The translations under genes and the position numbers were made by a program. Source: an uncultured Clostridiaceae bacterium (GTDB lineage Bacteria > Bacillota > Clostridia > TANB77 > CAG-465). From it: a stretch of 64,000 bases of DNA. Positions 35,368 through 52,045 of the stretch are shown one piece after another; position 1 is the first letter of the stretch; each line of letters starts with the position of its first letter. Where the stretch lies: positions 4,138-68,137 of the forward strand of contig CANCXL010000003.1 in NCBI GenBank assembly GCA_947381905.1. Reading direction: 5' to 3'. The notes below the pieces were generated by a model. It was not told the DNA's origin. It saw only the letters and a program-made list of their open reading frames with translations, and searched no databases.

Positions 35368-35421
35368 CTATTACATTTTTATTTCAATTCAAAATGTGCT
35401 CTTTTTTTTAATTTTTCGCGG

Positions 35422-35450
35422 TTGCATTTTTTTGCATTTAGATATATACT
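35422..35450 (+). promoter_or_regulatory. sigmaA-type promoter of the 35.5-52 kb operon (TTGCAT-17 nt-TATACT)
   Basis: Hexamers at 35422-35427 and 35445-35450, about 60 nt upstream of ATG 35511. Confidence 0.5.
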
Positions 35451-35510: not shown

Positions 35511-36542
35511 ATGATAGGAATGAGTCAAATTAAAAAGAAGACAATACAAGGTATAGTTATTGGTGCAAGTGTTGGTATTGCAGTAGCTATAGGTGTAAGC
35601 GTATTTGCTTTCTTTACAATAAAATCATATAAGGACGGAACAAATAAAAATTATATTAAGAACTATACTACACCTGTAACTGTTCTTAAAAGAGCTATAG
35701 TTCAAGGAGAAGTAATTACTTCAGATATGATTGAGACAACTAATGTAAATAATGCTACAGTACCTACAGGAGTAGTAAATGCTGGTGCAGTAGTTGGATT
35801 AACTGCTAAATATAATATTGCGGCTAAGGTGCCTATTACAAGTGATATGGTAAGTCAAGAGGTAGTAGCTGCTGATGTAAGAGATGTAGAAATAAATACA
35901 GTTCTTATGCCAAGTGACCTAGTAGAGGGAGATACTATAGATATTAGAATAATGTTCCCAAATGCGACAGACTATATTGTTCTTGCACAAAAAACAGTAG
36001 ATAAAATAAATAACACAACATTTTGGTGTAAATTATCTGAAGATGAAATACAGCTACTAAATAGTGCTGTTGTAGATTCATTTGTAAATAGTGGATCTAA
36101 ATTATATGCATTAAGATATACAGATAGTGATGCGCAAGTAAAATCATCAGATGATATTGTAAGTGAAACAAAAGGATATATTGAAACTCTAATTGAAAAA
36201 GATTGGGATAATATGGTAGAAATGGATTCTACAGAAGCTGCTGCTAAAATATATGATTTTATAGTTAAATATAAAAACTTTGCAAATGCATCAACAAAAA
36301 CAACACAAAACTATCAACCAAATACTTTTGTAATTGATGCAATGAAATCTAACAAATACTTGTTAACTAACGCAACACAAGAGCTTGCAAGACTTAATGC
36401 AGAATCAAGATCTACAATAGAAAATGGAATAAAAAATTATAGATCTCAAAATAGCAATAGTTATGAAAATATTGTTACAGGAGCACAACAATCTATTATT
36501 ACTCAACAAGTAGAAAGAGAAAATTTATTAGAAGGAAAATAA
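35511..36542 (+). CDS. CpaB/RcpC-like pilus assembly protein (N-terminal TM helix plus SAF-type domain)
   Basis: A TM helix (IVIGASVGIAVAIGVSVFAFF) is followed by VTVLKRAIVQGEVITSDMIE...VVGLTAKYNIAAKVPITSDMV, the pattern of SAF/CpaB beta-clip domains. It is the first gene of the operon. Confidence 0.6.
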   Translation: MIGMSQIKKKTIQGIVIGASVGIAVAIGVSVFAFFTIKSYKDGTNKNYIKNYTTPVTVLKRAIVQGEVITSDMIETTNVNNATVPTGVVNAGAVVGLTAKYNIAAKVPITSDMVSQEVVAADVRDVEINTVLMPSDLVEGDTIDIRIMFPNATDYIVLAQKTVDKINNTTFWCKLSEDEIQLLNSAVVDSFVNSGSKLYALRYTDSDAQVKSSDDIVSETKGYIETLIEKDWDNMVEMDSTEAAAKIYDFIVKYKNFANASTKTTQNYQPNTFVIDAMKSNKYLLTNATQELARLNAESRSTIENGIKNYRSQNSNSYENIVTGAQQSIITQQVERENLLEGK

Positions 36543-36568
36543 TAATTGAGTAATAGGAGGAATGTTAA

Positions 36569-37276
36569 ATGCAAGTAATAGGAATGTATGGATATGTAGA
36601 TAAATATGATTTTGTTATTGCAACTGCAAGAACACTAAATATAATGAGCAAATCGGTTCTTGTAATAGATGCAACATCAGATCAAAAATATAGATATATT
36701 ATTCCATCAATAGATAAGAGTGAAAAGTATGTAAATCAATATGGCGAAATAGATTTTGCTATTGGCTTTGAATCATATACTTCACTAGACGAATATTTAA
36801 AAGAAAAAAATATAGATATAAATTTATATAGTTATGTCTTAATAGATATAGAAAATGCGGATATGTATAGAAAATTTAAAGATGCACCAGTAAGTAAAGC
36901 ATATATGTATATAGATACAAATGTCTTATCTGTTGCTAAAAATGAAGAATTAGTTCGTGCAATGAGAGATGATAATCCTGAAAAAGAATTAGTTTTTTCT
37001 AAAATATTATATAGAGCATATTTATCTCGTGCTGCGACAACATATCTTGAAGATAAAATTGCAAATTATGCTGTAAAATGGACAGACGAAGTATATGATA
37101 TAAGTACAGACGAGCAAGACATGATGGTAAATATTGATTCTCAATTTAGTGGACTTATAGATATTAGAAAACACACTAAAACATACATAATGTATATGTG
37201 TGAATACATATCTAAACTTTTAGGAGATGAAGATCCTAAAACTATATTAAAAGAGATTAAAAGGAGGAAGAATTAA
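36569..37276 (+). CDS. ParA/MinD-fold-like protein lacking a Walker A box (candidate degenerate TadZ/CpaE paralogue)
   Basis: The beta1-loop-helix-beta2 layout is VIGMYGYVDKYDFVIATARTLNIMSKSVLVIDAT, with GYVDKYD where GxxGxGK[ST] is expected. A Walker-B-like YVLIDIEN is present. Confidence 0.4.
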   Translation: MQVIGMYGYVDKYDFVIATARTLNIMSKSVLVIDATSDQKYRYIIPSIDKSEKYVNQYGEIDFAIGFESYTSLDEYLKEKNIDINLYSYVLIDIENADMYRKFKDAPVSKAYMYIDTNVLSVAKNEELVRAMRDDNPEKELVFSKILYRAYLSRAATTYLEDKIANYAVKWTDEVYDISTDEQDMMVNIDSQFSGLIDIRKHTKTYIMYMCEYISKLLGDEDPKTILKEIKRRKN

Positions 37277-38088
37277 TGGCAAAAATTGTATTTTGGAGTC
37301 CTGAAGAAGGTGTATCTGGATGTACACATACTGCTATTGCTGTAAGTTCTCTTATGGGAATAACTCATAAAACATCTTCGCTTTTAATTGATGCAAATTC
37401 TAATGCAAGAAAAATAGCATCTTCTTTTACATATTATGATGATTTAGTAAATGCAAATAGTTTTAATGATAGTAATATGGGAATGAATGCAATAATGCGT
37501 CTTATAAAAAGTAATAAGCTTTCACCAGATATTATTCAAAACTATTCTAAACCAGTTTTAAAAGGAAGATTAGATATTTTATATAGTGCAATTGCAAATA
37601 CAACTACTGAAGCAAGGGAAAATTTACTAAGTATGCCTTTAATTGCAAAAAATGCAGATGAGCTATATGATTTAGTTTTTATAGATTTACCTAAAACAAC
37701 AAGTGATGATATAGCTTTAAAGGTTATGGAACAGGCAGACGTAATAATTTGTGTAATTCCACAAGAAATAGAAAAGTTAACAAAGACTTTAAAGAAAATT
37801 AATTCAATAGATGAATTAAAGAATAAAACAAAAATATATGTTTTAGGAGATTATGAATCAGGTTCTAAGTATAATATCTTTAATGTAAAACTTAAATTTA
37901 AAATACCAGAACCATGTTACGTACTTCCACATAACTATGTTTTTGCAGATGCTTGTAATGATGGAAATGTACTAGATTTTCTATACAAGAATATAAATGC
38001 TCCGGCAAAGGACTATAATGGAGACTTTATGCTAAGAGCGACAGAGATTGTTGAGGAGCTTGTAAAAACACTAAAAATAAAAGAGTAA
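37276..38088 (+). CDS. TadZ/CpaE-like ParA/MinD-fold protein with a deviant Walker A lacking lysine
   Basis: Contains KIVFWSPEEGVSGCTHTAIAVSSLMGITHKTSSLLIDAN and a Walker-B-like DLVFIDLP. Its start overlaps the previous stop (TAATG). Confidence 0.5.
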   Translation: MAKIVFWSPEEGVSGCTHTAIAVSSLMGITHKTSSLLIDANSNARKIASSFTYYDDLVNANSFNDSNMGMNAIMRLIKSNKLSPDIIQNYSKPVLKGRLDILYSAIANTTTEARENLLSMPLIAKNADELYDLVFIDLPKTTSDDIALKVMEQADVIICVIPQEIEKLTKTLKKINSIDELKNKTKIYVLGDYESGSKYNIFNVKLKFKIPEPCYVLPHNYVFADACNDGNVLDFLYKNINAPAKDYNGDFMLRATEIVEELVKTLKIKE

Positions 38089-38101
38089 GAGGGGTGATAT
38101 A

Positions 38102-39997
38102 ATGTCAGTTGCATTTGTATTTAATATTTTATTAATACTACTTTTACTAGCATTTATTGCAGCTTTCTTCTATTATAAGGTAAAAAAATCTGGTGTAGAT
38201 CAGATGGTAGAGGATAGCTTATCAAGAGAAAAGATTACATATAGTCTTTCTACAATGCAAGAATATGTTAAAAAGCAATTTGATGAAATAACAAGAATGA
38301 ACTTATATGATTTGGCATTATCTGAAGAAGAATTTGAAAGAAGAAAAAATGTTAAATACGAACTTAAAAGAGCATTAAAAGGTGCTGGATATGCAGATTC
38401 TAACGATAAAAAATATGTTAAATCGTTAATGTTTGATTTATTAAAAAATGATTATAAAGTTAATAACTTTAACATTAATCATGCAATACCTTTTAATAAC
38501 TTTAATGAATTAAAAGCACAAGATAAATTTGAAATATTAATGCACATATATAAGAAGACATACAAAGCAGAAGCTTTAACTAAAATAATAACTAAATATG
38601 CATTAGATTATCCTAAATACGAGTTTGATGCAACAGTACCTTCTTATGTTATAACAGCAAGGGAGATAGATGATATATTTACAAATGAGGTATCTCCTGA
38701 AACTTTATCATTTGAAGACAAGCTTGAAATTGTTGTTCAAAGAATATACCAAGAATATAAAGGATATAGTGTTGTTGATGATATAAGAGATATGAATATT
38801 GATGGTGTATCTGGTGGTGTATCTGGTATTCCACCATCATTTCTTGATCAATTAAGTGACATGGATGATTATTTATCTCAAATGAATGATTATAAAATAC
38901 CAATGTCATATGATTCAGTATGGATATTCTATAAAGGTAAAGCTACATATTTATCATTTTTATCATTTGGTAGTGAAGCTGAACTTAAAAGGGTATGTCA
39001 AAACATATATAAATATAACAATCCAGGACAATTATCTGAGTCTGTAGGTTATAAAATAAATGAAATGAAAGACGGTTCCAGAGTTGTTGTTTTAAGACCA
39101 AACTTCTCTGAATCTTGGGCATTCTTTGTAAGAAAGTTTGCACCACCTACACTTATTTCTCCAGAACAATTACTTGTTCATGAGAATAAAGATAATGTTG
39201 TTGAATTATTAAAATATTTAATAAGAGGAGCAAGGGTAACAGCAATTACCGGTGAGCAGGGTTGTGGTAAAACTACACTTTTGATGGCTATAATGAAATT
39301 TTTATATCCTACAATTACAATTCGTGTACAAGAAACTGCATTTGAATTACACTTAAGAAAAATTTATCCTTATCATAATATATTATCTTTAAGAGAAACA
39401 GATACTATAACTGGACAAGAAGGTCTAGATGTACAAAAGAAAACAGATGGTGGAGTTAACATCTTAGGAGAGGTTGCAACAGACCCAGTCGCTGCATGGA
39501 TGATTCAAATGGCACAGGTTGCATCAAAATTTACTTTGTTTACTCACCATGCTAAAACATTTCCAAACCTAATTACATCACTTAGAAACTCACTTTTAAA
39601 AATTGGAATGTTTAATTCAGAAAATGTTGCTGAGGTACAAGTTGTACAAGTTATAAATTTTGATATACATTTAAAAAGAGCTGTTGATGGTTCAAGATAT
39701 ATAGAGAGAATAACAGAATGTATTCCACTTGAACAAACATATAGCTATAATAATGATTATAGAAAAGTAAAAGATGTTAATCAAAAATTAGATAAATTTA
39801 TGGATAATGCTGTTGAGTATTTCCAACATATGACACAATCACAAAATTATACATATAGAAATATTGTAGAATTTGTTGATGGAAGATATGTATTTAAAAA
39901 TCCAATAAGTGAAGATAACATTAGAGCTATGAGAGATAATATGTCTGCAGAAGACATAAAGGCTTTTGATGATTTCTTAGATATAGCTTGGAGGTGA
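38102..39997 (+). CDS. CpaF/TadA-family (T2SSE/VirB11-like) secretion ATPase with an N-terminal transmembrane anchor
   Basis: Walker A ITGEQGCGKTTLLMAIM, an Asp-box-like ITIRVQETAFELHL, Walker B plus His-box GVNILGEVATDPVAAWMIQMAQVASKFTLFTHHAKT. Residues 4-26 (AFVFNILLILLLLAFIAAFFYY) are strongly hydrophobic. Confidence 0.8.
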   Translation: MSVAFVFNILLILLLLAFIAAFFYYKVKKSGVDQMVEDSLSREKITYSLSTMQEYVKKQFDEITRMNLYDLALSEEEFERRKNVKYELKRALKGAGYADSNDKKYVKSLMFDLLKNDYKVNNFNINHAIPFNNFNELKAQDKFEILMHIYKKTYKAEALTKIITKYALDYPKYEFDATVPSYVITAREIDDIFTNEVSPETLSFEDKLEIVVQRIYQEYKGYSVVDDIRDMNIDGVSGGVSGIPPSFLDQLSDMDDYLSQMNDYKIPMSYDSVWIFYKGKATYLSFLSFGSEAELKRVCQNIYKYNNPGQLSESVGYKINEMKDGSRVVVLRPNFSESWAFFVRKFAPPTLISPEQLLVHENKDNVVELLKYLIRGARVTAITGEQGCGKTTLLMAIMKFLYPTITIRVQETAFELHLRKIYPYHNILSLRETDTITGQEGLDVQKKTDGGVNILGEVATDPVAAWMIQMAQVASKFTLFTHHAKTFPNLITSLRNSLLKIGMFNSENVAEVQVVQVINFDIHLKRAVDGSRYIERITECIPLEQTYSYNNDYRKVKDVNQKLDKFMDNAVEYFQHMTQSQNYTYRNIVEFVDGRYVFKNPISEDNIRAMRDNMSAEDIKAFDDFLDIAWR

Positions 39998-40001
39998 TAA
40001 A

Positions 40002-42056
40002 GTGACTAATATAGCAATTGTATTAATTGTTGTTTCTTTAATAGGCCTCGTAGGATTACTAGTTTACTATACTATATTAAAAAGAAAATATAGTAGTAAT
40101 ACAATTCTACAATCAAAAGATACTTTAGTAATAAAAAACAAAGTTAATTTTAAAGATACTTTTGATAAGTTATATCAAGTAATGTATATGACATTTGTTA
40201 AAATGCCAATTATGAAATACTATGCTAAAAAAATAAGATTAAAGTATGAGATGTCAAATGATTATACTGAATATGAGCTTAGAAGAAACACTGGTAAATT
40301 AATGACACTTACTATAATTGTTATGTTTGTTGCTTTAGCAGTATTTGTAAATATAGTAAACGATTTATATATGACTTTAATTATAATGATTGGATTAATT
40401 ATAGTCGTAGAAAAGGTTACAGATATTACAATTACATCGGTATCAAATAAGATATTAAGACAAATGCCAGAAGCATTTACAATATTAAGACATGCATTCC
40501 ATGAACATGGAATGGTAGATGAGGCTTTAGCTGACACAATAGATGAATTAAGTGAAAAAGAGATAGCACCACAATTAAAAAGAATAAGGGAGGCTATAAT
40601 ATCTGACCAACCAGAAGTTGAACTTGAAAGATATTATGATACTGCTCCAAACAGATTCTTAAAATTATTTGCTGGTATATCATATTTAACTTATGAACTT
40701 GGAGACAGAAAAGTTGAAGATACATCAATTTATCTTAAAAACTTAAATAATATTTTAAATGAAATATATCTTGAAATATTAAAACAAGACAAACTAAAAG
40801 CTACTTTTAGAAGCTTAACTATTATAGCAGTAATTCCGCTTATATTTATTAAACCGATAGAATCTTGGGCTACAGGAAACTTTGCTGCACTATCTAATTT
40901 TTATACAAGTAGTATAGGTTTTGCAATGCAATCTATAATAATTGTATCAATATTTATGTCATACTTGCTATTAAGAGTAGTACGTGAAGATGGTGAAGAA
41001 ATAAAATTTGATAGGGTATCAAAAGTTAAGTGGCAAGAAAAATTATATAAAATAAATGTAGTGAGAATGATAGTAGATGCTTTTAAGACTAAAAAGCATA
41101 CATCAAAGTATAAAAGAGAAGTTAACTTAATAAAAGATACAAATTCATATCTTACAATAGAGTGGCTATATGTAAATAAATTTGCTTATGCGTTTGTTGC
41201 TTTTTGCTTAACAATTCTATTAATATTTAATATGAATATTATAACTAAAAACTCAGCTTATACCAAACTTAGTAATGAATTTTTATCACTTGGAAAATTA
41301 AGTGAAGATGATCAAGAGGCTGCAAAAGAAGTTGCAGATTTTGATTTAACTTATATAGAAAAGTATAAAAATAAAAATGTAACTAAAGAAGAGCTTGCAG
41401 AAAATCTAACAGACACAGCTACAGGAACTGTAGATACAGATGCTGTTGATAGAATATATGATAAAATAACAACAATAAATGGTTCATATATAAAATTTTG
41501 GCATGTTTTAATTGCATTACTTATTGCTCTTATTGCATACTATGTTCCAAATATAATGTTAACTATAAAAAACAATATTAGAAAAATGGACAAGGATAAT
41601 GAGATTATGCAGTTCCAATCTATTATATTAATGCTTATGCATATTGATAGAGTAGATGTTCAAACTATACTTGAGTGGTTATGTAGATTCTCATATGCAT
41701 TTAGAGAACCAATTGCAACATGCTTAAATAACTATGAAGCAGGTGCAGAAAGAGCACTAGAAGAACTAAAAGATTCTGTACCAAATAAAGACTTCCAAAG
41801 AATAATTGATCAATTAGAATCAGCTGTAACAAGAATTCCAGTTAAGGCAGCTTTTGACGAGTTAGAGACTGAAAGAGCCTTTTTCTATGAAAAGAGAAAA
41901 GATGCAAATGAAGCTCTAGTAAAAAGAAAAGCAACAATTGGTCAAGTACTTGGATTTACGCCTATGGTGCTTTTAATTGGTGGATATCTAGTAGCTCCAC
42001 TACTTATTGTAAGTATATTACAAATGCTTAATTACTTTAGCCAGATGGCATTCTAG
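40002..42056 (+). CDS. Polytopic platform protein with two T2SSF-like (TadB/TadC, GspF-like) repeats in one polypeptide (GTG start)
   Basis: There are two cytoplasmic helical segments, each followed by TM helices. The first is PEAFTILRHAFHEHGMVDEALADTIDEL..IAPQLKRIREAI. The second is FQSIILMLMHIDRVDVQTILEWLCRFS..FREPIATCLNNYEAG. Confidence 0.6.
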   Translation: MTNIAIVLIVVSLIGLVGLLVYYTILKRKYSSNTILQSKDTLVIKNKVNFKDTFDKLYQVMYMTFVKMPIMKYYAKKIRLKYEMSNDYTEYELRRNTGKLMTLTIIVMFVALAVFVNIVNDLYMTLIIMIGLIIVVEKVTDITITSVSNKILRQMPEAFTILRHAFHEHGMVDEALADTIDELSEKEIAPQLKRIREAIISDQPEVELERYYDTAPNRFLKLFAGISYLTYELGDRKVEDTSIYLKNLNNILNEIYLEILKQDKLKATFRSLTIIAVIPLIFIKPIESWATGNFAALSNFYTSSIGFAMQSIIIVSIFMSYLLLRVVREDGEEIKFDRVSKVKWQEKLYKINVVRMIVDAFKTKKHTSKYKREVNLIKDTNSYLTIEWLYVNKFAYAFVAFCLTILLIFNMNIITKNSAYTKLSNEFLSLGKLSEDDQEAAKEVADFDLTYIEKYKNKNVTKEELAENLTDTATGTVDTDAVDRIYDKITTINGSYIKFWHVLIALLIALIAYYVPNIMLTIKNNIRKMDKDNEIMQFQSIILMLMHIDRVDVQTILEWLCRFSYAFREPIATCLNNYEAGAERALEELKDSVPNKDFQRIIDQLESAVTRIPVKAAFDELETERAFFYEKRKDANEALVKRKATIGQVLGFTPMVLLIGGYLVAPLLIVSILQMLNYFSQMAF

Positions 42057-42110
42057 TTTAAATCATCTTAAGAGATGTTTTAATATAATTGTGTAAAGGA
42101 GGAATAAAAT

Positions 42111-42602
42111 ATGGATAACGCACAAAAAGCTATAATGATTGGTGTTGGACTTTTTGTAACAATACTTATCATAGCAGCTGTAATGCTAATTGTTAACCCA
42201 GCAATTAATTTAATAGACAATGCAGCAGGTAAAATAGGAAACCTTAGTGAAACATTTACAACTATGCTTTATTCAAAATATGATGACAGAACAGTAACTG
42301 GTGCAGAAGTTATTTCATTTGTTCAACAATATGCAGCAGATGAAAATATGATTATTGAGGTAAAACCTAACTCTAGTTCAAATATGTTACAACTTGGAAA
42401 AGCAAGAGGTAATGAGTCTTTAATTATAGATAAAGGACTAAAATATGATGATACTAATAAACAAACTAAAGTTAGTGCATTAACAGATAGCTCAAATCCA
42501 GAAACTTATGTACCATCTTCTGCTAGATACGAAGCAAAATTAATAAAAAGTTCATCAGGAGATACTGTAGTAGGAGTACAATTTGTAAGAACAAACAAAT
42601 AA
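42111..42602 (+). CDS. Pilin-like protein 1 (candidate major filament subunit, 163 aa)
   Basis: MDNAQKA-IMIGVGLFVTILIIAAVMLIV has a short polar leader followed by a hydrophobic helix of about 22 aa. It has the best SD sequence of the set (AAAGGAGG), is the first gene after the platform gene, and is followed by a 12-bp hairpin. Confidence 0.55.
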   Translation: MDNAQKAIMIGVGLFVTILIIAAVMLIVNPAINLIDNAAGKIGNLSETFTTMLYSKYDDRTVTGAEVISFVQQYAADENMIIEVKPNSSSNMLQLGKARGNESLIIDKGLKYDDTNKQTKVSALTDSSNPETYVPSSARYEAKLIKSSSGDTVVGVQFVRTNK

Positions 42603-42616
42603 TATTATATTAATTT

Positions 42617-42648
42617 CAAGGTATATAATTTTCTGGTTATATACCTTG
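42617..42648 (+). terminator. Perfect 12-bp stem-loop after the first pilin-like gene (candidate partial terminator or mRNA stabiliser)
   Basis: CAAGGTATATAA-8 nt-TTATATACCTTG. The downstream U-tract is weak (AATATTATT). Confidence 0.4.
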
Positions 42649-42736
42649 AATATTATTAAACAGTAGATATATTTTAAAGAATATATATAATACATTTTTT
42701 AAAATGTGTCTATATAGAAGGGGGGGAAGAGTAGTA

Positions 42737-43201
42737 ATGGAAGAAAACATTTCAAGAGCAATAATGATTGGAGTAACCACTCTTGTTGGAATTATGACAA
42801 TATCTGCAATTATAGTGTTCTTTAACTCAAGTTTGAGAGTAGTAGAAAACGCAAGTGGCTCAAAAGATTTTTCAACAGTTTATCGAAATGATATAGAATC
42901 TACTCTTCTTATGAGCAATTCTGGTAATTATATAAAAGGAACAAGTGTAATAAATTTAATTAGTTATTATGAACAAGATTTTAATGTAAGCATCAGTATA
43001 GCAAATATTAAGTATATAGATAAATCAGGAAATGTACAGATAATAGATAATATTGTAATTAATACAAATGATGTAAATATTAGAAAAGCAGCATATAATC
43101 TGGCTGTGCGATATATAATGGATAACCAAGACTTTACAATTTCTGTAAAAGATAATGATGAAGATATGGGTTCTAAAGAAATAACAATAAGGGGAATTTA
43201 G
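42737..43201 (+). CDS. Pilin-like protein 2 (154 aa)
   Basis: MEENISRA-IMIGVTTLVGIMTISAIIVFF. It shares an internal motif, IKGTSVINLISYY, with the other three paralogues. ATG 42737 follows GAAGGGGGGG. Confidence 0.5.
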   Translation: MEENISRAIMIGVTTLVGIMTISAIIVFFNSSLRVVENASGSKDFSTVYRNDIESTLLMSNSGNYIKGTSVINLISYYEQDFNVSISIANIKYIDKSGNVQIIDNIVINTNDVNIRKAAYNLAVRYIMDNQDFTISVKDNDEDMGSKEITIRGI

Positions 43202-43203
43202 AT

Positions 43204-44754: not shown

Positions 44755-44766
44755 GAGGAATTGTAT

Positions 44767-45171
44767 TTGGGAGATTCGTTAAATAGAGCAATTATGATTG
44801 GCGTAGGACTATTTATTACAGTTATTATCATATCTGGAATTATGTTTATATTTTCCCAAATGCAAGAAATATATAAGCATGTAGATGATACAGATACTTC
44901 GATAACATCAAAGTTTGGAAAGTATGCATCTTTTGATAATACAACAATAACTGGTCTTGATATGATTAATTGTGCAAATAAATATTATAAAGATAATGAA
45001 GTTATAGTAATGTATGGAAATATACAGCTAAATACACAAGAAGGAATAAATTATTTAAACAATGAATATGAAAATGGAAATATAAAGTATGAATATTCAT
45101 ATTCTTCTACTATTGATGAGGTAGAAGTAGATGGAATATATAAAACACAAATAAGTTTAACAAGAAAATAA
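44767..45171 (+). CDS. Pilin-like protein 3 (134 aa, TTG start)
   Basis: (M)GDSLNRA-IMIGVGLFITVIIISGIMFIF. TTG 44767 lies 8 nt after AGGAGG. TTG 44761 is too close to the SD sequence. Confidence 0.5.
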   Translation: MGDSLNRAIMIGVGLFITVIIISGIMFIFSQMQEIYKHVDDTDTSITSKFGKYASFDNTTITGLDMINCANKYYKDNEVIVMYGNIQLNTQEGINYLNNEYENGNIKYEYSYSSTIDEVEVDGIYKTQISLTRK

Positions 45172-45193
45172 AAAAGAAAGAGGTGATGATAAT

Positions 45194-45658
45194 ATGGAAA
45201 ATGCAAACGAAGCAATATATTTAGGTGTATATACAATGATATTTGTAATAGCCTTGTCTCTTACTATTTTTCTATTTTCATCACTAATGACATATACAGA
45301 AGATGCATACGAATATATGCATAAAGCTACAACTGATTCTGTTAATATATCTGGAGATGAGAATAGGCATTTAATATTAAATGGTCAAGAAGTTTTATCA
45401 TATTATTATAACTATATAAAAAAAGATAATTATTCAGATAAGAGCTACGATTCAAATACAGTAGTTACAATAAATTTAAATACAAAAAATGAAACGCCGT
45501 TAATGCTTGAAAAAGATAATGTTTCATATAAAGATTTGCTAAATAAAATTGGAATGCAAAATAAATATATTTTAACTGTTGGAAGCAATACAACAGAAAA
45601 TATAACATATATTAATATAATTAAGGCTACAGAAGAGGAGCTACAAGAGAAAATATAA
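45194..45658 (+). CDS. Pilin-like protein 4 (154 aa, most divergent)
   Basis: MENANEA-IYLGVYTMIFVIALSLTIFLF, with the internal motif ILNGQEVLSYYYNY. Confidence 0.45.
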   Translation: MENANEAIYLGVYTMIFVIALSLTIFLFSSLMTYTEDAYEYMHKATTDSVNISGDENRHLILNGQEVLSYYYNYIKKDNYSDKSYDSNTVVTINLNTKNETPLMLEKDNVSYKDLLNKIGMQNKYILTVGSNTTENITYINIIKATEEELQEKI

Positions 45659-45670
45659 AAGGAGGAAAAA

Positions 45671-46687
45671 ATGAAAGATACATTAAGTATGATTGTTGCA
45701 GTTATTTTTATTGTTGTTCTTTTAGTACTTCTTCCTTTATATAACTACTTTGAACGACAAGATGATATGTCATATAATTTGACATTAAAAACCGTTACAA
45801 TGTTTGTAGATGAAGTTGCACAAAACGGATATATTGATCAAAATATGTATGATAAATTTATTGCAAGACTTGCTACTACTGGAAATACTTATGACATTCA
45901 AATTGAGGCTAAAAAGAAGATACTTACTATGGATCCTGAAAACATAGATCCAGATACAGGTGAAGAGACTTATATAGAACAATTTAAGTCATATTATAAT
46001 AAAGATATATTTAATGATGAAACTGGAAAAACAAGTAATATTATTTCAAAAGATAATAGTTTAAAAAACAATGTTTTTTTCTTAGATGTTGGAGATAAAT
46101 TTTTTGTTACAGTAAAAAATACAAATACAACAATGGCATCAGCGCTTCTTGGAGCTTTGGTATCAAGCATAACAAAGGAAAAAGTAAATATAACATATGG
46201 TTCAACTATAAAAAATAATAACTGGGAGAATGCAGATATTAGTCAGTTATTTCAAAGTGATATTTTGGTATCTATTTCATTAGAAAATCCTAACGATCCA
46301 GAAGATAAAAACGGATATCCAGAATATAATTTTGAAAATGCAACTGATAGAAGTATTAGTTTTATAGTAAAAGTTTTAAATGCTGACTCGTCAGAAAATT
46401 TATCACAAAAAATAAAAGATAATATAAGACTTGTAGGAACAAATCCAAATTGTTATCTTAACCCATCATCAATAGAAGGAGATTCAGGTAGTAACAATGA
46501 ATTTAAAATAAAATTTACTTTAGACGATACAAAACAAAGTAGATATTTTTCAGATAATGAATATAATGTTTTTCAATGTTTCTTGCCTGCAAATATAATA
46601 CAAGGAACATTTAGTAAAAATTCGAGTGCTAGTTCACAGAAAGTATTATATAAAATAAATAGTGGAATAGAGGTACCAGAACTATAA
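45671..46687 (+). CDS. Paralogue of the 43204 product without the LamG domain (pseudopilin/TadE-like N-terminus)
   Basis: About 50 percent identity by eye over the first 80 aa or so (LLPLYNYFERQDDMSYNLTLKTVTMFVDEVAQNGYIDQNMYDKFIARLATTGNTYD versus ILPIYIAYEKRDDISYALALKITTDFVDNVNSKGYITSEMYTDYITKLAVTQNSYD). The two also share the block VKN.NTTMAS. Confidence 0.55.
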   Translation: MKDTLSMIVAVIFIVVLLVLLPLYNYFERQDDMSYNLTLKTVTMFVDEVAQNGYIDQNMYDKFIARLATTGNTYDIQIEAKKKILTMDPENIDPDTGEETYIEQFKSYYNKDIFNDETGKTSNIISKDNSLKNNVFFLDVGDKFFVTVKNTNTTMASALLGALVSSITKEKVNITYGSTIKNNNWENADISQLFQSDILVSISLENPNDPEDKNGYPEYNFENATDRSISFIVKVLNADSSENLSQKIKDNIRLVGTNPNCYLNPSSIEGDSGSNNEFKIKFTLDDTKQSRYFSDNEYNVFQCFLPANIIQGTFSKNSSASSQKVLYKINSGIEVPEL

Positions 46688-46699
46688 GGAGGTGAAAGG

Positions 46700-47878
46700 A
46701 TGAAGATAACAGACTTTGCATTAGTGTTTATTGCAATAATAATACCATTTATGCTTGTGTTATATATAAATATAACATTTACAATTAAAGCAGAAGAAAT
46801 GGAATTATATTATCAAACAGTGTTAAATTCTGCTTTAGATGATGCAGCATATGAAATGAAACAAGTTGAAAGCCAAGACAAACAAATAGATTATGGATAT
46901 TCAGATAAATTAAATAAAAAGATAAATGTTAATGCACAAGTAGGGGTGGATTCTTTCTTTGAGACATTATACAATACGTTTGGTGTTAAAGGAAATGAAG
47001 CAGGAGAAAGTTATCTTAATCTTTTTGTACCAGCTGTAGCAGTAATAGAATATGATGGCGTTAGGGTATCTAAAAACGAAACTGTTACAGGAGAGGATGG
47101 CCTAAGCATAACACAAAGAGTGTTGAAACCTAAAAGATACTTTACATATACATATTCAATAGTAAGAAATGGTGGAGAATATAGCTATGTTCAAGGAATA
47201 GCAAGTGATAATGTTTCATCTGTACACACAATTGAATTTACAATGGATAGTTTTGTTACTCATAGAGGATATGATTATGCAAGTAATGAAGAGATTGATG
47301 TAGAATCTTTTTATCTTGAAGATTCTAAAAATAATAAAAATTTAGTTATTGGAGTATATGATACAGAGTCAAAAAATAAATTGATGAATGAAATAATATC
47401 ATCCTTAAAAGATATTAGACCATCAATAATATCAAATGTTGTTGCAAGCGAACTTTCTTATGCGGTAAATGAAAACAACTATTATGCAAGACAATCAGGA
47501 GTTATATATTCATTTAATTTTCCTGCAACCACACAAGATGAATTATATAATATGGTTGATGGTGTAGGTATAGTTGCATTTATGCAAGGAATATCTGTTG
47601 GAAATAAATATTTAAATACTAAAGCTTTTGGAGTAAGTTCACTTGGAAATACAACAAGATATTATTTTACTGCTCCAATCACAGATTCACAAATTCAGAT
47701 GAATCTATATCATAAAGATACTAATTGTCCAGAGTATAGATTGTCTAGGATATCAGACATGTCACCAAGATATGCTACATCTAAACAAGAAGCAGCAACA
47801 AGTGAAACTACAGGAACACAAAGTGGAGTGAAAAAGACATTTAGAGGATTTTATCCATGTCCAATTTGTAATCCATAA
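46700..47878 (+). CDS. N-terminally anchored extracytoplasmic protein with a C-terminal Cys cluster
   Basis: The anchor is FALVFIAIIIPFMLVLYINITF. The C-terminus has NCPEY...FRGFYPCPICNP. Confidence 0.45.
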   Translation: MKITDFALVFIAIIIPFMLVLYINITFTIKAEEMELYYQTVLNSALDDAAYEMKQVESQDKQIDYGYSDKLNKKINVNAQVGVDSFFETLYNTFGVKGNEAGESYLNLFVPAVAVIEYDGVRVSKNETVTGEDGLSITQRVLKPKRYFTYTYSIVRNGGEYSYVQGIASDNVSSVHTIEFTMDSFVTHRGYDYASNEEIDVESFYLEDSKNNKNLVIGVYDTESKNKLMNEIISSLKDIRPSIISNVVASELSYAVNENNYYARQSGVIYSFNFPATTQDELYNMVDGVGIVAFMQGISVGNKYLNTKAFGVSSLGNTTRYYFTAPITDSQIQMNLYHKDTNCPEYRLSRISDMSPRYATSKQEAATSETTGTQSGVKKTFRGFYPCPICNP

Positions 47879-47916
47879 AGTTTTAAGATATAATAAAAAA
47901 GGAGGTGTAATCTAAA

Positions 47917-49239
47917 ATGGGAGAAGGTTTTGTTCCATCTTATCAAGATGAAGAAGAAAGACTTAAAGTAAGAAAAGAGAAAGACAGAAAAGATAGAATA
48001 AAAAGTATAATTATATCAGTTATAGCAAGTATAGTAGCACTTGGTATTATATTTTTAGGTTACACAATATTTAATGTAGATTATAGTAAATACGAAAAGT
48101 ACGAAGAAAAAATGGATATATATGGCTTTTCAAAAGTTTATGACAATCAAAAAGCAAATACTAAAGAAAAAGTTACAAAATCTGAAGCAGTTAAAATGAT
48201 ATTATCTTGTTTATATAATGTATCAAGCATTGATGGAATTGCAATGCCAACAGAAGAGACATATTCTAATGCTATATGGGTTGAATATGCAATAAAACAA
48301 GGAATAGTATCTAGAGAAGAGATAAATGCATCAAATGCAAATGATAAGGTAAAATATCAAGAAGTATTAGTATGGCTATATAATATAAAAGCAAAGGTGT
48401 TAAACATTGAGCCAGATACTACTGCAAACTTTAATATAAAAGATATCAATGCATATAATGCAGATCAAAAATTTGCTATATATGATTTATTAAATTCACA
48501 AGTAATTGTAGAAAATTTCAAAAGAGTTGATGGAAATAGAAGACTATATAAAGGAAAACTTAATGAACTAATAGTAAATTTTGCTGAGGAATATAATACT
48601 ATTACAGTTGGAAATGCTAAAATAAATATTAATGAAGATAAAATACCAGAAAACTCTAATATGTATCCATACACTTTAGCAAGTGTTCAAAAAGATGTAT
48701 ATGAAATCCCATTTAAAAATAATGGAAATGAAGGAGTAATTTATCCTATAGACTATTATAAAGATAATAAAGAATACTATGGACAAATTAAAACTTATGT
48801 AGAAAACTATTATAATACACTTTTAAATATAGATTATAATAGCATAAAAGCAGGAGATTTTAAAAGAAAAATAAAAAAATATGTTTACGACGAAATAGAT
48901 GACAACAAGCTTTCTTCATATATTGAATATGTAAAAAATAATCATATTAAAATGAGTGGAAAAGCAGCAGCACAACTACCATGTGTATATTTTGACGGAG
49001 AAAATTATAGAGTAAGAGTAAAGCTTGAGATAAAAATAGAATCATCTGATACAAAAGATAATTTAATATATCATGATTTAGAATCAGGCAAAACATCGTA
49101 TAATAGTGATTTAATCACTATATGTGTTGATACTATAATGCAAAAGACTGATTCGTCAGAAACTTTATTTATAAAAGAAGGAACTATAAATTCTATTATT
49201 TCAAAAACTAGTAGTAGTATAGTTAGTAAGGAGGATTAA
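47917..49239 (+). CDS. Bitopic membrane protein (charged cytoplasmic N-terminus, one TM helix, and an outside domain of about 390 aa)
   Basis: Contains EEERLKVRKEKDRKDRIKS, then IIISVIASIVALGIIFLGYTIF. A faint SLH-like pattern (VTKSEAVKMILSCL..NAIWVEYAIKQGIVS) is present but unverified. Confidence 0.45.
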   Translation: MGEGFVPSYQDEEERLKVRKEKDRKDRIKSIIISVIASIVALGIIFLGYTIFNVDYSKYEKYEEKMDIYGFSKVYDNQKANTKEKVTKSEAVKMILSCLYNVSSIDGIAMPTEETYSNAIWVEYAIKQGIVSREEINASNANDKVKYQEVLVWLYNIKAKVLNIEPDTTANFNIKDINAYNADQKFAIYDLLNSQVIVENFKRVDGNRRLYKGKLNELIVNFAEEYNTITVGNAKININEDKIPENSNMYPYTLASVQKDVYEIPFKNNGNEGVIYPIDYYKDNKEYYGQIKTYVENYYNTLLNIDYNSIKAGDFKRKIKKYVYDEIDDNKLSSYIEYVKNNHIKMSGKAAAQLPCVYFDGENYRVRVKLEIKIESSDTKDNLIYHDLESGKTSYNSDLITICVDTIMQKTDSSETLFIKEGTINSIISKTSSSIVSKED

Positions 49240-49240
49240 T

Positions 49241-52006
49241 ATGAACAGAAAAGTATTATTAATTCTCATGACTATAATAGTAACAATTTTATTGTCTGGT
49301 AATGTATATGCCTATGATAATGGAAGAGAAGTATTTGTAAGACATATAGATAAAGAATCAGGTCAAATAATTGATGGACTACAGAATTCAAATCAAGAGG
49401 TAGTAGATATAAGTGGTAATAGTTCGCTAGTATCAAATAGCACAGCAGATGATGCAAGTATTTCATATAGTGAATATTATAATTATAATGTATCTGATAC
49501 AATGAAAATTACAAAAACTCTTGTAATGCAAGTGGATGGAAAAAAATATGAATATTTAGGATATAATAAATGTACATCACCAGATTTATATACTGCATAT
49601 GATATACAAGAGCAAAAGAAAGCGTTAGTAAGAGCAGGTACTGCGTCATTAGATCAGCCATATGATAGAAATCAGGCTAATACAACATATCAAACAATAT
49701 CATCAAATAATAATGATGTAACTATAATAGATTTTTATTATTCAAAAAAGGATGCAGATAATATTAAACCACAGCTTTATTGTAATACAAGTGTATGGAC
49801 TGGAAATGAATCCGGAATAAGATCTAATGTAACATATATACCGGCAGGAGAAATGCTTAGACCATATTTTGAAACACCACGTTATTTTGTAAAAGATTTA
49901 TCATATGAAAAAACAATTGAAGGTGGTAAAGTAAAATATAAATTAAATAAGTTTGTGGTATATAGGATAGAAGAAGCATATCTTAAATCGTCAGAAAGTA
50001 AGCATATAGGAGATAGTGGTCAGATAGAGATTACAGGTGAACTTGTTGGGGATGGTCCAGCAAGTGCAATAGAAGGAATAAATAATAAATCTACTATATT
50101 AGTGCAAAATAAGGCACAACTTACAGATGAGTTAAATTATTTAGTAAATAATTTTAACAATAAAGAAAATAATAAATTTCCTGGAAGAAATGAAATAGAT
50201 CAAAGCAACGGAGATGATTCTAGTTCAAAGGATTTTGATGCCGACCTTGTAGTAAAAGCAAGAACATATAATGGATTAAGAAGCGCTAAAGGAAATGTTG
50301 TATATAGAGAATATAACGTTTTAGATGGAAATTATGGTGCAAGTATAGAGTATGAATCTAAAAATGATCACTTTATAAATGTATATACACCAGTTTTCTT
50401 AGAAAAGCCACAAATAACTACATCAAGTAATACATCAATAGATCATACATCTTTAAATTCTTCAACAGTAATTCTTGCAGATGATGCAACTTTTGAAATA
50501 AAGCTTTCTTGTAAAGATGCAGATTTTATGTATTATAATAATATTAGTCCAGAAAGAAAAGCAAGATTTGTAAGTTATTATTATCTTATCTTTGATTTTG
50601 ACGTTATACACAATGGTGTGCAATATGAAAAAGGTACAGTAATACAAATGACAAATCAAGCATTATATAATGCTGATGGTGCAACATACTTTCATGGACA
50701 AGTAGCACCAAATGAGACTTTATCAAGAGATAATTCAGAACATAAGATTATAGTATTTGCATCAGCAGATAACATGAGAGATAATGCGCTATTAAATTAT
50801 GTTGCAGATCAAGAGGTTGCTATTCAAATAAAGAAAGAGAAAGATCCTTCTGAAAGAAAATATCTAGATGATAGTGGTAACAATAAATCTAATTTCTTAA
50901 CAGATATTGAACACTCAAAGAATAATACAGATGCACAGTATACTGGCTGGGCGACTCTATATGGAGATGGATATTATTTTGCTATGGACTCTGTTACTGT
51001 AAGAACTGTATCTAAACTTTATGATTTTAAGATAACAGATTGTACAGATTTAGCATTTAAAAGTGCATTTAGAGATTCTAATACAAATGAACTTCAAGGA
51101 ATAAATTATTATTCTGGAATAAGAAGGTTATTTGTATATACTAATGCAAATAAAGAGGTAACAACATTATTTGATAGAAATAATATAAAAATTCCGGGAA
51201 CGTCAGCAACTACAACATTGCCACTTGGACCATATAAGCACTTATCTTCAACATATATTAGTGCACCAAAGCTTGGCTATAGAATCGCCTTTGACGTTAA
51301 AACAACAGGATATTATGAGCCTACTGGAAATGATTCTTCAAGCAGAAAAATAGGCATAAAACCAACATATTACTATGTATCAAAAGATGGATCTACAATT
51401 GAAAAAGATATAACACTATATTATAAGGATCAATCCGGAAAATATAAAAAATTTGTTGGTAGCGACTATTCGATATATTTTAAACCAAATGATGGATATA
51501 GATATAAGAGCAATAGTTCAACTGCAGATACATCATATTTATCAAGTAAAGAGGAAGAGCTAAAGATTGGAAAAGAAGAGTTCTTTTTAACAGATAATAT
51601 GGTTACACTAGATGATAGTGGATATATACAGTCGTGGTATGGTGAATTTAAACTTCCAAACACAACAGTTGCTGTAAAAAATGGGGATAATGTGGATAAA
51701 CATCTAAAAGATGGATACATAGGAGTAAAATTTGAGATAATATGCTATGATCAAAAACTAGGTCAAAACATATACTATGATTCAGAAAACAAAGCTGCTA
51801 GTCCAAAGACAAATACAACACAATGGGATTATGAAGGATATTTAGGCTTTTCAAACCCAGGACAGAGTGTAAATGAAAATTCAAGTTTAAGAATACAACT
51901 AGAAAAAGGAATATGGTCAATTAGCAATCAATCATTATATGATTTTGTTAAAGGAACTGTATTACTATATGATATTGATGCAAGGGCAGCAGATGATATT
52001 AATTAA
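49241..52006 (+). CDS. Large secreted protein (921 aa) with a Sec signal peptide; possible adhesin
   Basis: The signal peptide is MNRKVLLILMTIIVTILLSGNVYA-YD. The N-terminal region has a MucBP-like strand pattern (EVFVRHIDKESGQII..YEYLGYN..VTIIDFYYSKK). There is no LPXTG sorting signal or C-terminal anchor. Confidence 0.5.
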   Translation: MNRKVLLILMTIIVTILLSGNVYAYDNGREVFVRHIDKESGQIIDGLQNSNQEVVDISGNSSLVSNSTADDASISYSEYYNYNVSDTMKITKTLVMQVDGKKYEYLGYNKCTSPDLYTAYDIQEQKKALVRAGTASLDQPYDRNQANTTYQTISSNNNDVTIIDFYYSKKDADNIKPQLYCNTSVWTGNESGIRSNVTYIPAGEMLRPYFETPRYFVKDLSYEKTIEGGKVKYKLNKFVVYRIEEAYLKSSESKHIGDSGQIEITGELVGDGPASAIEGINNKSTILVQNKAQLTDELNYLVNNFNNKENNKFPGRNEIDQSNGDDSSSKDFDADLVVKARTYNGLRSAKGNVVYREYNVLDGNYGASIEYESKNDHFINVYTPVFLEKPQITTSSNTSIDHTSLNSSTVILADDATFEIKLSCKDADFMYYNNISPERKARFVSYYYLIFDFDVIHNGVQYEKGTVIQMTNQALYNADGATYFHGQVAPNETLSRDNSEHKIIVFASADNMRDNALLNYVADQEVAIQIKKEKDPSERKYLDDSGNNKSNFLTDIEHSKNNTDAQYTGWATLYGDGYYFAMDSVTVRTVSKLYDFKITDCTDLAFKSAFRDSNTNELQGINYYSGIRRLFVYTNANKEVTTLFDRNNIKIPGTSATTTLPLGPYKHLSSTYISAPKLGYRIAFDVKTTGYYEPTGNDSSSRKIGIKPTYYYVSKDGSTIEKDITLYYKDQSGKYKKFVGSDYSIYFKPNDGYRYKSNSSTADTSYLSSKEEELKIGKEEFFLTDNMVTLDDSGYIQSWYGEFKLPNTTVAVKNGDNVDKHLKDGYIGVKFEIICYDQKLGQNIYYDSENKAASPKTNTTQWDYEGYLGFSNPGQSVNENSSLRIQLEKGIWSISNQSLYDFVKGTVLLYDIDARAADDIN

Positions 52007-52015
52007 CATGAAGAA

Positions 52016-52045
52016 GAACAAGTAATAGATACTTGTTCTTTTTTT
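52016..52045 (+). terminator. Intrinsic terminator closing the 35.5-52 kb operon
   Basis: Stem GAACAAGTA / TACTTGTTC followed by T7. Confidence 0.8.

Follow-up and report, generated by a model that had tools for sequence, protein, structure and literature searches.

Few surface machines of prokaryotes are as widespread as type IV filaments, and any census of these filaments hinges on the recognition of an ATPase, a platform and a pilin; in the 2019 census of the superfamily, all three had to be recognised together. The described systems with which we compare the present locus are the Tad/Flp pili, encoded by the tad genes of Aggregatibacter actinomycetemcomitans and the cpa genes of Caulobacter crescentus, the archaeal type IV pili Aap, Ups and Epd, the PilB/PilC pili of Streptococcus sanguinis, and the 'no Flp_2' group of Imam et al. 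(2011), which comprises divergent clostridial tad-like loci without recognisable pilins (PMC3244431). Tad systems themselves are thought to be of archaeal ancestry (PMC6668835). Here, we describe a cluster of 14 co-directional open reading frames (ORFs; ORF1 to ORF14) at positions 35511-52006 on the + strand of a 64,000-nucleotide stretch of contig CANCXL010000003.1 (assembly GCA_947381905.1, positions 4,138 to 68,137) from an uncultured Clostridiaceae bacterium of the gut. This whole stretch, with a G+C content of about 28%, is referred to as the window; the ORFs, the promoter, the hairpin and the terminator of the operon, as well as the carboxypeptidase gene upstream, lie on its + strand.

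From our point of view, it is very probable that the locus belongs to the type IV filament superfamily, since a CpaF-like ATPase and a TadB-TadC platform come together with a CpaB-like collar protein, a protein resembling TadZ, helix-headed subunits and a hairpin that would boost the major subunit. With moderate confidence, and on the basis of sequence comparisons and structure models, we further read the operon as encoding a deeply divergent, monoderm-adapted type IV filament machine, in which a motor of the Tad (type IVc) kind would build a filament in the manner proposed below. The motor is of the Tad kind, the subunits are not, and the family is a widespread system, which we take to be a new class within the known type IV filament kind. 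A preliminary description of this DNA had proposed such a machine, and the proposal stands, given that the ATPase matches CpaF, the platform matches TadB and TadC, and no description of such an architecture was found. Within an incomplete coverage of the literature, no paper describing the family or its architecture was found, the nearest being Imam et al. (2011) and the mention of a 'pilus assembly ATPase' on the plasmid pBsph.

The ATPase, ORF4 (38102..39997), is CpaF-like and of the hexameric type. Its membrane helix (about residues 3-25) is followed by some 245 amino acids that make up a family-specific domain, and then by the N2 and ATPase domains at residues 275-547. Searched as a single sequence against the PDB, ORF4 matches C. 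crescentus CpaF over residues 274-546 with an E-value of 5.5e-9, and a profile of 20 family members retrieves CpaF at 3.6e-11 (residues 275-547), VirB11 at 5e-5 and an archaeal GspE at 0.015; these entries apart, the same profile has no PDB match to PilB, PilT, GspE or FlaI up to an E-value of 0.1. On account of these profile results, ORF4 can be placed by sequence as a deep-branching secretion ATPase with CpaF as its nearest solved relative, and it appears to lie outside the well-characterised Firmicute Tad clades. The secretion-ATPase identity proposed earlier is thus supported at the profile level, though the Pfam T2SSE score of 18.4 bits stays below the cut-off of 24.9. Nothing in NCBIfam exceeds its cut-off, the top match, far below it, being the 'TadA family conjugal transfer-associated ATPase'. 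The three motifs that had been pointed out, namely GEQGCGKT (Walker A), QETAFEL (Asp box) and THHAKT (His box), are all found; GEQG[CS]GKT and THHA are kept in 18 of the 20 family members, and the copy on a Paenibacillus plasmid combines GSQGSGKT with THHA. The membrane anchor is equally real, as 19 of the 20 members carry the N-terminal helix and the ATPase of a Clostridium beijerinckii plasmid is alone in lacking both this helix and the THHA box.

The putative inner-membrane platform, ORF5 (40002..42056), is 684 amino acids long and has eight predicted membrane helices. Its relationship was established by profile-profile comparison with hhalign, using as the Tad reference 16 sequences of classical TadB and TadC proteins, taken from eight tad loci of Proteobacteria. 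The N-terminal half (residues 90-335) matches the combined TadB and TadC profile with an E-value of 5.4e-7 (probability 92%, 227 columns), with values of 5.6e-6 for TadB alone and 1.3e-4 for TadC alone, and the C-terminal half (residues 470-684) matches the combined profile at 1.4e-7 (probability 94%, 164 columns), with 8e-4 for TadB alone and 1.1e-6 for TadC alone. The controls, namely the middle segment, the N-terminal segment, twenty column-shuffled and two reversed ORF5 alignments, gave E-values of 0.08-0.8 against the combined profile, and the lowest control value over all profiles was 0.013 (N-terminal segment versus TadC alone). Earlier hhalign comparisons with four TadB/TadC sequences had been marginal (0.047, then 2e-4), and the signal became clear after ORF5 had been split into its halves and the Tad profile enlarged; a direct comparison of the two halves with each other was not significant. 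Since the halves match TadB and TadC, respectively, with negative controls, ORF5 is a fusion of TadB and TadC that follows the tadB-tadC gene order, with a TadB-like half at about residues 97-330 and a TadC-like half at about residues 505-670.

This reading agrees with an AlphaFold2 model built from 106 sequences (mean predicted local distance difference test, pLDDT, 90.5; predicted template modelling score, pTM, 0.84). The model is all helical and repeats one arrangement twice (at about residues 96-328 and 494-683), in which a membrane helix runs into a long cytoplasmic helix, followed by four short helices and a long helix that runs into a membrane helix. The fusion of the TadB and TadC equivalents, already suspected in the preliminary description, is hence borne out, and the two T2SSF-like repeats that it saw are recovered by the profile-profile comparison and the model but not by the Pfam T2SSF family. 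In an exhaustive search, the platform family comprised 948 clusters at 50% identity, none of them annotated, and most of the 150 best-scoring of the 948 representatives are about 620-700 amino acids long, that is, full-length and fused.

Three genes precede the motor genes. The CpaB/RcpC-like product of ORF1 (35511..36542) has a membrane helix at its N-terminus and a SAF domain on the extracytoplasmic side, and scores above the Pfam cut-offs for SAF (31 bits, cut-off 21) and ChapFlgA (34 bits, cut-off 23.8) and below that of the NCBIfam CpaB equivalog TIGR03177 (24.9 bits, cut-off 71); with classical CpaB it aligns by hhalign at an E-value of 2.8e-6 (probability 88%, 133 columns), so that the first gene can indeed be called CpaB/SAF-like. 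ORF3 (37276..38088) is a TadZ/CpaE-like protein of the ParA fold without Walker A lysines, which matches classical CpaE by hhalign at 1.5e-4 over 111 columns and plasmid-type TadZ-like proteins at 4.5e-4. Its family consensus has no conserved lysine at the P-loop position, and the orthologue from Paenibacillus is labelled ParA by the NCBI annotation pipeline PGAP. For the small cytoplasmic protein ORF2 (36569..37276), the family profile finds MinD (PDB 4v02) at 6e-4 over the P-loop region only, and the hhalign comparison with CpaE is not significant. ORF2 keeps a conserved remnant of the P-loop, G..DK[T/Y], its gene is present in all loci examined, and it is possibly a degenerate protein of the MinD/ParA fold. 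A canonical Walker A motif is found in neither protein, and of the two TadZ-like proteins without a functional P-loop that had been proposed, ORF3 is moderately supported and ORF2 barely. The clusters found on plasmids carry an extra, longer gene at their head; in the clostridial plasmids, a CbiA/ParA domain can be recognised in its product.

The small pilin-like proteins form a family of their own. ORF6 (42111..42602; leader MDNAQKA), ORF7 (42737..43201; MEENISRA), ORF9 (44767..45171; MGDSLNRA, TTG start) and ORF10 (45194..45658; MENANEA, acidic at -2) are 134-163 amino acids long with a globular head, modelled in the case of ORF6, and align with each other and with the small proteins of all related clusters. 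Across 334 distinct sequences, they share the nearly invariant N-terminal signature M-[D/E]-N-A-[Q/S]-K-A, followed by [I/L]-[M/I/L]-[I/M]-[G/A]-[V/G/A] and about 16 more hydrophobic residues (about 21 in total). The leader has seven residues in 85% of the sequences, position -1 is Ala in 333 of the 334 and position -2 is Lys or Arg in 91%; as the search pattern demanded a start of M-[D/E/G] and, in front of the helix, Ala or Gly, these percentages characterise the family rather than an unbiased sample. A pilin variant on the C. beijerinckii plasmid has Gly at -1 (MGENGRKG/LFMAV, with the slash after -1), which suggests that the -1 position of the family is equivalent to the canonical cleavage site. 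The Flp motif (G/xxxxEY) is absent from the pilins of the window, both Gly and EY missing, and the statement that they lack this motif as well as the Gly/Glu5 motif of other pilins is correct. Less accurate was the view that seven proteins of the cluster share nothing besides a short polar leader and an N-terminal helix: the hydrophobic helix is there, but four of them make up the signature family and two others, ORF8 and ORF11, are paralogous. The AlphaFold2 model of ORF6 (124 sequences, pLDDT 84), with a helix at residues 2-57 and a small alpha/beta head, has the shape of type IV pilins in general and is unlike Flp.

Among these proteins, ORF6 is probably the major pilin, as its gene is the first pilin gene of the cluster, occurs as tandem duplicates in some relatives and has a conserved hairpin behind it. 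This hairpin, a stem-loop of 16 bp with a T-rich tail (42615..42650, from a terminator scan), has counterparts 8-17 nucleotides 3' of the ORF6-type gene in at least 12 lineages with differing stem sequences, and is probably an attenuator or an mRNA stabiliser. A hairpin after the major-pilin gene is the usual means by which its transcript is kept in excess over those downstream. Hairpins at matching positions were seen in the comparison loci L007, L010, L015, L017, L020, L023, L026, L029, L035, L054 and L082, with stems as different as AAGGTATATA..TATATACCTT, AAAGGCATATAAT..GTATGCCTTTT and ATTATCCTACTATAAC..GTTATAGTAGGATAAT, and a promoter-like TAGATA-16-TATAAT lies 3' of the hairpin in the window (42664-42691). 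Some close relatives, represented by L001 (14007-15007), L023 (14008-14853) and L022 (13973-15660), have two or three ORF6-type genes in a row, which suggests antigenic or functional diversification.

Compared with Tad/Flp systems, the likeness is one of the motor and of gene order: a CpaF/TadA-type ATPase as the closest solved relative, TadB-like and TadC-like platform halves in the tadB-tadC order, a CpaB/RcpC-like SAF protein encoded first, a ParA-fold protein with moderate likeness to TadZ before the ATPase, and one operon with several pilin-like genes downstream. The differences are nevertheless considerable. In the window, TadB and TadC are fused into a protein of 684 amino acids with an N-terminal extension and an insert of about 135 amino acids; the ATPase is anchored in the membrane by a helix of its own and contains a family-specific 245-amino-acid domain; the pilins are proteins of 130-165 amino acids with a globular head, whereas Flp is a helical protein of 50-80 amino acids with the G/xxxxEY motif; no TadV peptidase is encoded nearby; secretin, TadD and RcpB are missing, as expected for a monoderm; and no similarity to TadE, TadF or TadG is detectable. 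Scores against the curated Tad models are all below their cut-offs. Because the tests for a Flp pilin, TadV, separate TadB and TadC, and TadE/TadF failed, we do not class the locus as a Tad locus, and regard it as Tad-like at the level of the motor.

The 'no Flp_2' loci likewise belong to Clostridia and have tad-type biosynthetic genes that are only distantly related to those of other tad loci, but by description they possess a recognisable tadC and tadV, whereas the platform of the window escapes the family models and no peptidase is found. With archaeal type IV pili, the system shares a platform that is one long polypeptide of two homologous halves, and a short leader with a basic -2 residue, Ala or Gly at -1 and no strict Glu5; the pilin signal presumably resembles that of PibD-type substrates. 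On the other hand, the ATPase is nearer to bacterial CpaF than to the one archaeal GspE-type protein in the PDB (E-value 0.015), the hosts are Bacillota and no archaeal-type peptidase was found. The pili of S. sanguinis use a PilB/PilT/PilC motor, are processed by PilD and consist of pilins with Gly at -1 and Glu5. Common to them and the present system are pilin-like subunits with a grafted concanavalin/LamG-type module (ORF8) and the Gram-positive envelope, while their PilB/PilT/PilC motor, PilD processing and Gly -1/Glu5 pilins are unseen in the window. Since platform and pilins are invisible to Pfam, NCBIfam and PDB searches, and two of the three components demanded by the census thereby escape the models, the whole family is likely to be missing from type IV filament censuses.

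Several observations weigh against our reading of the operon. By HMMER, neither T2SSF nor any other Pfam family gave a match in 86 diverse members of the ORF5 family (16 and 70), NCBIfam gave none for ORF5, and its comparison with PDB sequences, as a single sequence or as a profile, returned nothing. When the models were searched against the PDB with Foldseek, there was no meaningful fold match for ORF5 and no specific match for ORF6, blanks that probably reflect missing full-length platform structures and the poor handling of long single helices, for which reason they are not counted against homology. Comparisons of the small-pilin, ORF8/ORF11 and ORF12 alignments with seven TadE/TadF sequences by hhalign remained at E-values of 0.12-0.52, Pfam TadE has no match among the products of the window, and the TadZ likeness of ORF2 and ORF3 is weak. 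A Gly at -1 and a Glu at +5 are central to the processing and assembly of canonical pilins. The pilins of the window have neither, and position +5 is acidic in none of the 334 sequences. The adhesive role discussed below is read solely from domain content. Finally, the 64-kb window contains no A24-type prepilin peptidase and no multi-pass ORF of such a kind, and phmmer with two TadV sequences, a search of modest sensitivity, revealed no TadV-like ORF at distances of up to about 10 kb from the ATPase in 82 loci. This search was local, covering the window and the 82 loci of about 20 kb each, and an unlinked gene elsewhere in the genome is possible; that no prepilin peptidase is encoded, as had been remarked, is accurate for the window and also for the surroundings of the 82 loci.

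In this context, it should be mentioned that the loci of MSH pili likewise have no peptidase gene (PMC6668835). Canonical-looking prepilin genes occur a few kb 5' of the cluster in L051 (2681; 286 amino acids, ..NERG/ITLMALV..) and L029 (48-1151; 367 amino acids, ..KQG/ISLIVLV..). In view of such nearby Gly -1 prepilin genes, genomes of this type probably also hold a conventional type IV or competence pilus system with a PilD/ComC-type peptidase elsewhere. It is possible that the pilins described here are processed by a peptidase shared with another system, or not at all. One could even speculate that they constitute a new class of filament without prepilin peptidase, in which the seven-residue N-terminus is kept as the mature end, the acidic residue 2 replaces the charge-pairing of Glu5, and the self-anchored ATPase and the fused platform are co-adapted. 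We regard this as a tentative and rather doubtful idea; if it were true, type IV filaments could dispense with a processing step held to be universal among them, and every census would have overlooked a common machine of the human gut and of toxin plasmids.

The remaining genes encode large surface proteins and bear on the question what the filament would be used for. The large pilin-like protein ORF8 (43204..44754) combines a hydrophobic helix at its N-terminus with a LamG/concanavalin-like lectin module at its C-terminus (Pfam Laminin_G_3, E-value 2.6e-10, above the cut-off), and its orthologue in L017 (16085-16993) ends in a type I dockerin domain and has no LamG module. With LamG here and dockerin there, ORF8 is probably an adhesin subunit with exchangeable binding modules; the dockerin of L017 possibly has a cohesin-bearing partner. 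ORF11 (45671..46687) is a paralogue of ORF8 with a different C-terminal part, the two giving reciprocal tblastn matches at the same loci. Both share an N-terminal domain with a very short polar end and a hydrophobic helix, followed by P and the motif E[KR]xDD[IM]SY. ORF12 (46700..47878; 392 amino acids), with an MKIxxxA(L/V)IF N-terminal helix, has no match in Pfam or NCBIfam and is possibly a minor-pilin or tip component. Its tblastn matches extend to most gut lineages and Paenibacillus plasmids, and counterparts on Paenibacillus and C. beijerinckii plasmids were identified by the motif, so that of the three large proteins (392, 440 and 921 amino acids) earlier taken as appended extras, this one turned out to be a core gene. 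Close to its C-terminus (47700-47878), cysteines occur in ..NCPEY.. and ..YPCPICNP, which may represent a metal-binding or disulfide motif of a presumably extracytoplasmic protein.

ORF13 (47917..49239), a membrane protein whose single membrane helix separates a charged N-terminus in the cytoplasm from an extracellular domain, and ORF14 (49241..52006), a large secreted protein with a Sec signal peptide, are both predicted from their sequences and detectable just in closer relatives. ORF13 represents the variable part of the cluster, and in the plasmid clusters of Bacilli its position is taken by a protein with S-layer-homology domains. ORF14 has no Pfam match; its C-terminal 290 amino acids are homologous to the C-terminus of a DUF5704 protein of Paenibacillus plasmids (BLASTP E-value 1e-13), which closes the plasmid clusters of Paenibacillus and Lysinibacillus. 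Among all 14 products, on which Pfam and NCBIfam were run, only ORF1 (SAF/ChapFlgA) and ORF8 (Laminin_G_3) score above cut-off.

On the basis of the lectin and dockerin modules, the wall-associated proteins, the fast-evolving surface parts, the sigmaA-like promoter and the gut-commensal hosts, an adhesive or cell-cell-contact surface pilus appears to be the most likely product of the operon. In the mechanism that we propose, ORF4, docked on ORF5, would lift ORF6 subunits from the membrane and polymerise their N-terminal helices into a surface filament, with ORF3 and perhaps ORF2 positioning or scaffolding the motor as catalytically inactive ParA-fold proteins. ORF1 would form an extracytoplasmic collar through the wall, ORF7, ORF9 and ORF10 would act as minor pilins, and ORF8, ORF11 and ORF12 as large subunits for the priming or capping of the filament, with exchangeable binding modules by which it would probably adhere to glycans, host surfaces or other cells (LamG here, dockerin in the relative). 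ORF13 and ORF14 would be wall-associated accessory proteins, the hairpin after ORF6 would raise the ratio of the major pilin to the other products, and maturation would proceed through an unlinked peptidase cutting after the invariant Ala, or not be needed. The recurrence of peptidoglycan enzymes, namely an S11 carboxypeptidase upstream in 43 of 80 loci and a hydrolase in the clostridial plasmid clusters, fits a machine that crosses a thick wall.

The system is widely distributed. More than 7,600 relatives of the ATPase were present among the candidates scored in a protein collection clustered at 90%, nearly all from gut metagenomes, and a scan with one genome per species yielded at least 590 matching stretches; the genome comparisons use 80 species-level loci kept from these more than 590 matches. 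The 80 loci stem from uncultured Clostridia of human, rabbit, ruminant, chicken and mouse guts, including Clostridium sp. CAG:1219, and one platform homologue is labelled Christensenellales. Across ATPase identities of 60-97%, the order of ORF1 to ORF5, the pilins, the ORF8/ORF11-type genes and ORF12 is kept in all 80, by which chance or artefact is ruled out as an origin of the arrangement; the survey of gene order that had been called for therefore shows conservation in every locus and also on plasmids. At 96-97% ATPase identity, the pilins are just 58-73% identical, the surface parts thus evolving faster than the motor. The cluster is further carried by 35 large Bacillota plasmids of 100-540 kb, with hosts in Paenibacillus, Lysinibacillus (pBsph among others), Thermobacillus, Cohnella, Sporosarcina, Cytobacillus, Alkalihalophilus, Clostridium botulinum, C. 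argentinense, C. beijerinckii and Butyrivibrio, and without exception the annotation of their platform gene reads 'hypothetical protein'. None of 50,697 phage records contained a platform homologue, for which reason a phage origin was rejected.

With regard to the plasmids, MOB-suite types all 35 carriers as 'non-mobilizable', whereas conjugation of pBsph-like plasmids has been reported (PMC13239906), so that either the typing misses transfer genes or the transfer apparatus is unconventional. The clostridial plasmid variant, seen in L085 (C. botulinum pINGR16-02E1) and L082 (the C. beijerinckii plasmid), has a single small pilin and a cell-wall hydrolase inside the cluster; downstream of it lie genes for a GGDEF protein, which hints at control by cyclic di-GMP, and signal peptidase I. 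A giant gene 5' of this variant measures about 5.8 kb in L085 and is longer in L082, where it reaches the edge of the locus.

The occurrence on these 35 plasmids, beside replication and partition genes, raises the question whether the cluster encodes a mating or cell-contact pilus for DNA transfer, of which the chromosomal copies would be domesticated or relict. The pBsph-like plasmids, though typed non-mobilizable, are conjugative by experiment (PMC13239906), a genome paper of 2015 groups the 'pilus assembly ATPase' of pBsph with weak homologues of VirB4, VirD4 and VirB6 as possibly acting in transfer (PMC4363355), and the conjugal transfer-associated TadA family is the best NCBIfam match of ORF4, far below its cut-off as stated above. 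However, the separate type IV secretion gene set of pBsph, whose genes for VirB4, coupling protein and relaxase sit elsewhere on the plasmid, could alone explain the transfer (PMC4363355), and VirB4, coupling protein and relaxase were neither found in the flanks of the window locus nor annotated beside the plasmid clusters. As the window locus lies among housekeeping genes (dacB-like, spoIID, mbl and polC), with no relaxase, coupling protein, VirB4 or integrase in its flanks, and is conserved vertically in a chromosomal context across many species, we hold a mating pilus to be unlikely. Distinctly unlikely, too, is a pseudopilus in the manner of type II secretion, that is, an export or wall-crossing device whose short filament pushes ORF13/ORF14-type proteins or other cargo through the peptidoglycan. 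ORF14 has a Sec signal peptide of its own, Tad-type motors such as this one are known from pili rather than from secretion, and exchangeable lectin and dockerin modules suit display on a filament better than a piston, even if large secreted or wall-binding proteins (ORF14, and S-layer-homology and DUF5704 proteins on the plasmids) constantly accompany the core, several pilin paralogues occur as in type II secretion pseudopili, and peptidoglycan enzymes are associated with the cluster.

A filament for DNA uptake, comparable to the Tad-like pili of Micrococcus luteus, seems very improbable to us. Monoderm Bacillota commonly use type IV filaments for this purpose, and Tad-type machines can serve transformation (PMC4322843, PMC6370729). 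However, ComEA, ComEC and DprA are absent from the Pfam-scanned flanks, with none noticed in the rest of the window, which was scanned non-exhaustively; related genomes have separate canonical Gly -1 prepilin genes that possibly belong to a Com system, and lectin and dockerin modules and big surface proteins are foreign to competence pili. We give just as little credence to a sporulation-linked envelope machine, for example a structure of the forespore or the spore surface, which the location of the locus between a dacB-like gene and the genes for SpoIID, an M23 peptidase and Mbl would bring to mind. A dacB-like gene lies upstream in 43 of the 80 loci, SpoIVB adjoins the cluster in a distant lineage, and nearly all hosts are spore-formers; but other flanking genes vary between lineages, and sporulation genes are frequent in such small genomes, so that the adjacency may be due to chance. 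Butyrivibrio plasmids carry the system, and Butyrivibrio is not known to form spores. The conserved promoter (TTGATT-17-TATACT) is moreover sigmaA-like and not of a sporulation-sigma type, for which reason a sporulation-specific promoter was rejected.

If the operon indeed encodes an adhesive or contact pilus, it would likely be a colonisation or cell-contact factor of uncultured gut Clostridia and a candidate accessory of the spread of megaplasmids in spore-formers. The reach of the family, with its 948 platform clusters and at least 590 genome stretches, includes very abundant gut bacteria resembling Christensenellales, and its carrier plasmids include those with botulinum type E and mosquitocidal Bin toxins. 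As such, it amounts to a natural experiment on which features of a type IV filament are essential, be it the peptidase, Gly -1, Glu5, a soluble ATPase or a split or fused platform, and since cultured carriers exist, among them Lysinibacillus sphaericus C3-41 (pBsph), Paenibacillus polymyxa M1, Butyrivibrio proteoclasticus B316 and C. beijerinckii CloBei18h, direct experiments are feasible.

The 14 ORFs are laid out as one operon. The 14 same-strand ORFs claimed in the preliminary description are present at their coordinates, and the pattern of gaps, the 134-nucleotide gap with the hairpin and the TAATG overlap at the ORF2/ORF3 junction are reproduced once two starts are corrected. A mechanical ORF list places the starts of ORF7 and ORF9 too far upstream; read from the sequence, ORF7 starts with the ATG at 42737, preceded by the ribosome-binding site GGGGGGAAGAG, and ORF9 with the TTG at 44767, 7 nucleotides 3' of AGGAGGA. 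With these starts, the gaps between the ORFs are 1-54 nucleotides apart from the one of 134. The sigmaA-type promoter was read as TTGCAT (35422-35427) and TATACT (35445-35450) with a 17-nucleotide spacer. Alone, this element scores below the pass level of a consensus scan; despite this, the single promoter proposed earlier is borne out, since TTGATT-17-TATACT is kept in 12 related lineages along with a GGAGGT ribosome-binding site. An intrinsic terminator (52016-52045), found by the terminator scan, follows ORF14 as described before, with an 11-bp stem (52016-52040) and TTTTTTG. No Rfam family reaches its threshold across the 64-kb window, and no riboswitch or other known RNA lies upstream. 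About 30 nucleotides 5' of the -35 element, a block at 35370-35389 (ATTACATTTTTATTTCAATT) is kept in most of the 12 aligned lineages and may be an operator or UP element.

Upstream of the cluster lie genes for an ABC/FtsX transporter and an S11 D-Ala-D-Ala carboxypeptidase, and downstream those for SpoIID, an M23 peptidase, MreB/Mbl and PolC. Integrase, transposase and conjugation genes are absent from the flanking genes, so that the earlier picture of a locus among sporulation and cell-wall genes, with no mobility genes alongside, is correct; the housekeeping flanks rule out a mobile element at this position and mark the locus as chromosomal. The carboxypeptidase (DacB-like; 34121..35338; Pfam Peptidase_S11, E-value 1.9e-70) may be a cell-wall-remodelling partner, which does not imply membership in the operon. 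Its homologues in the 43 loci are mostly on the same strand and often directly adjacent, and are also found in lineages at just 61% ATPase identity, as well as at loci where the other flanks differ. In L043 (19309-20520), at 62% ATPase identity, a SpoIVB gene lies directly 3' of the cluster; sporulation-gene neighbours thus occur in two contexts, with spoIID in the window, and this may be a coincidence. The remainder of the window resembles core chromosome, with SecY-like and SecD/SecF-like proteins by inspection (2818-4131, 18846-21054, 53960-54208 and 56466-60941 are listed) and PolC by Pfam; again by inspection, SpoIIID may be encoded by a small ORF located between mbl and the gene for the M23 peptidase.

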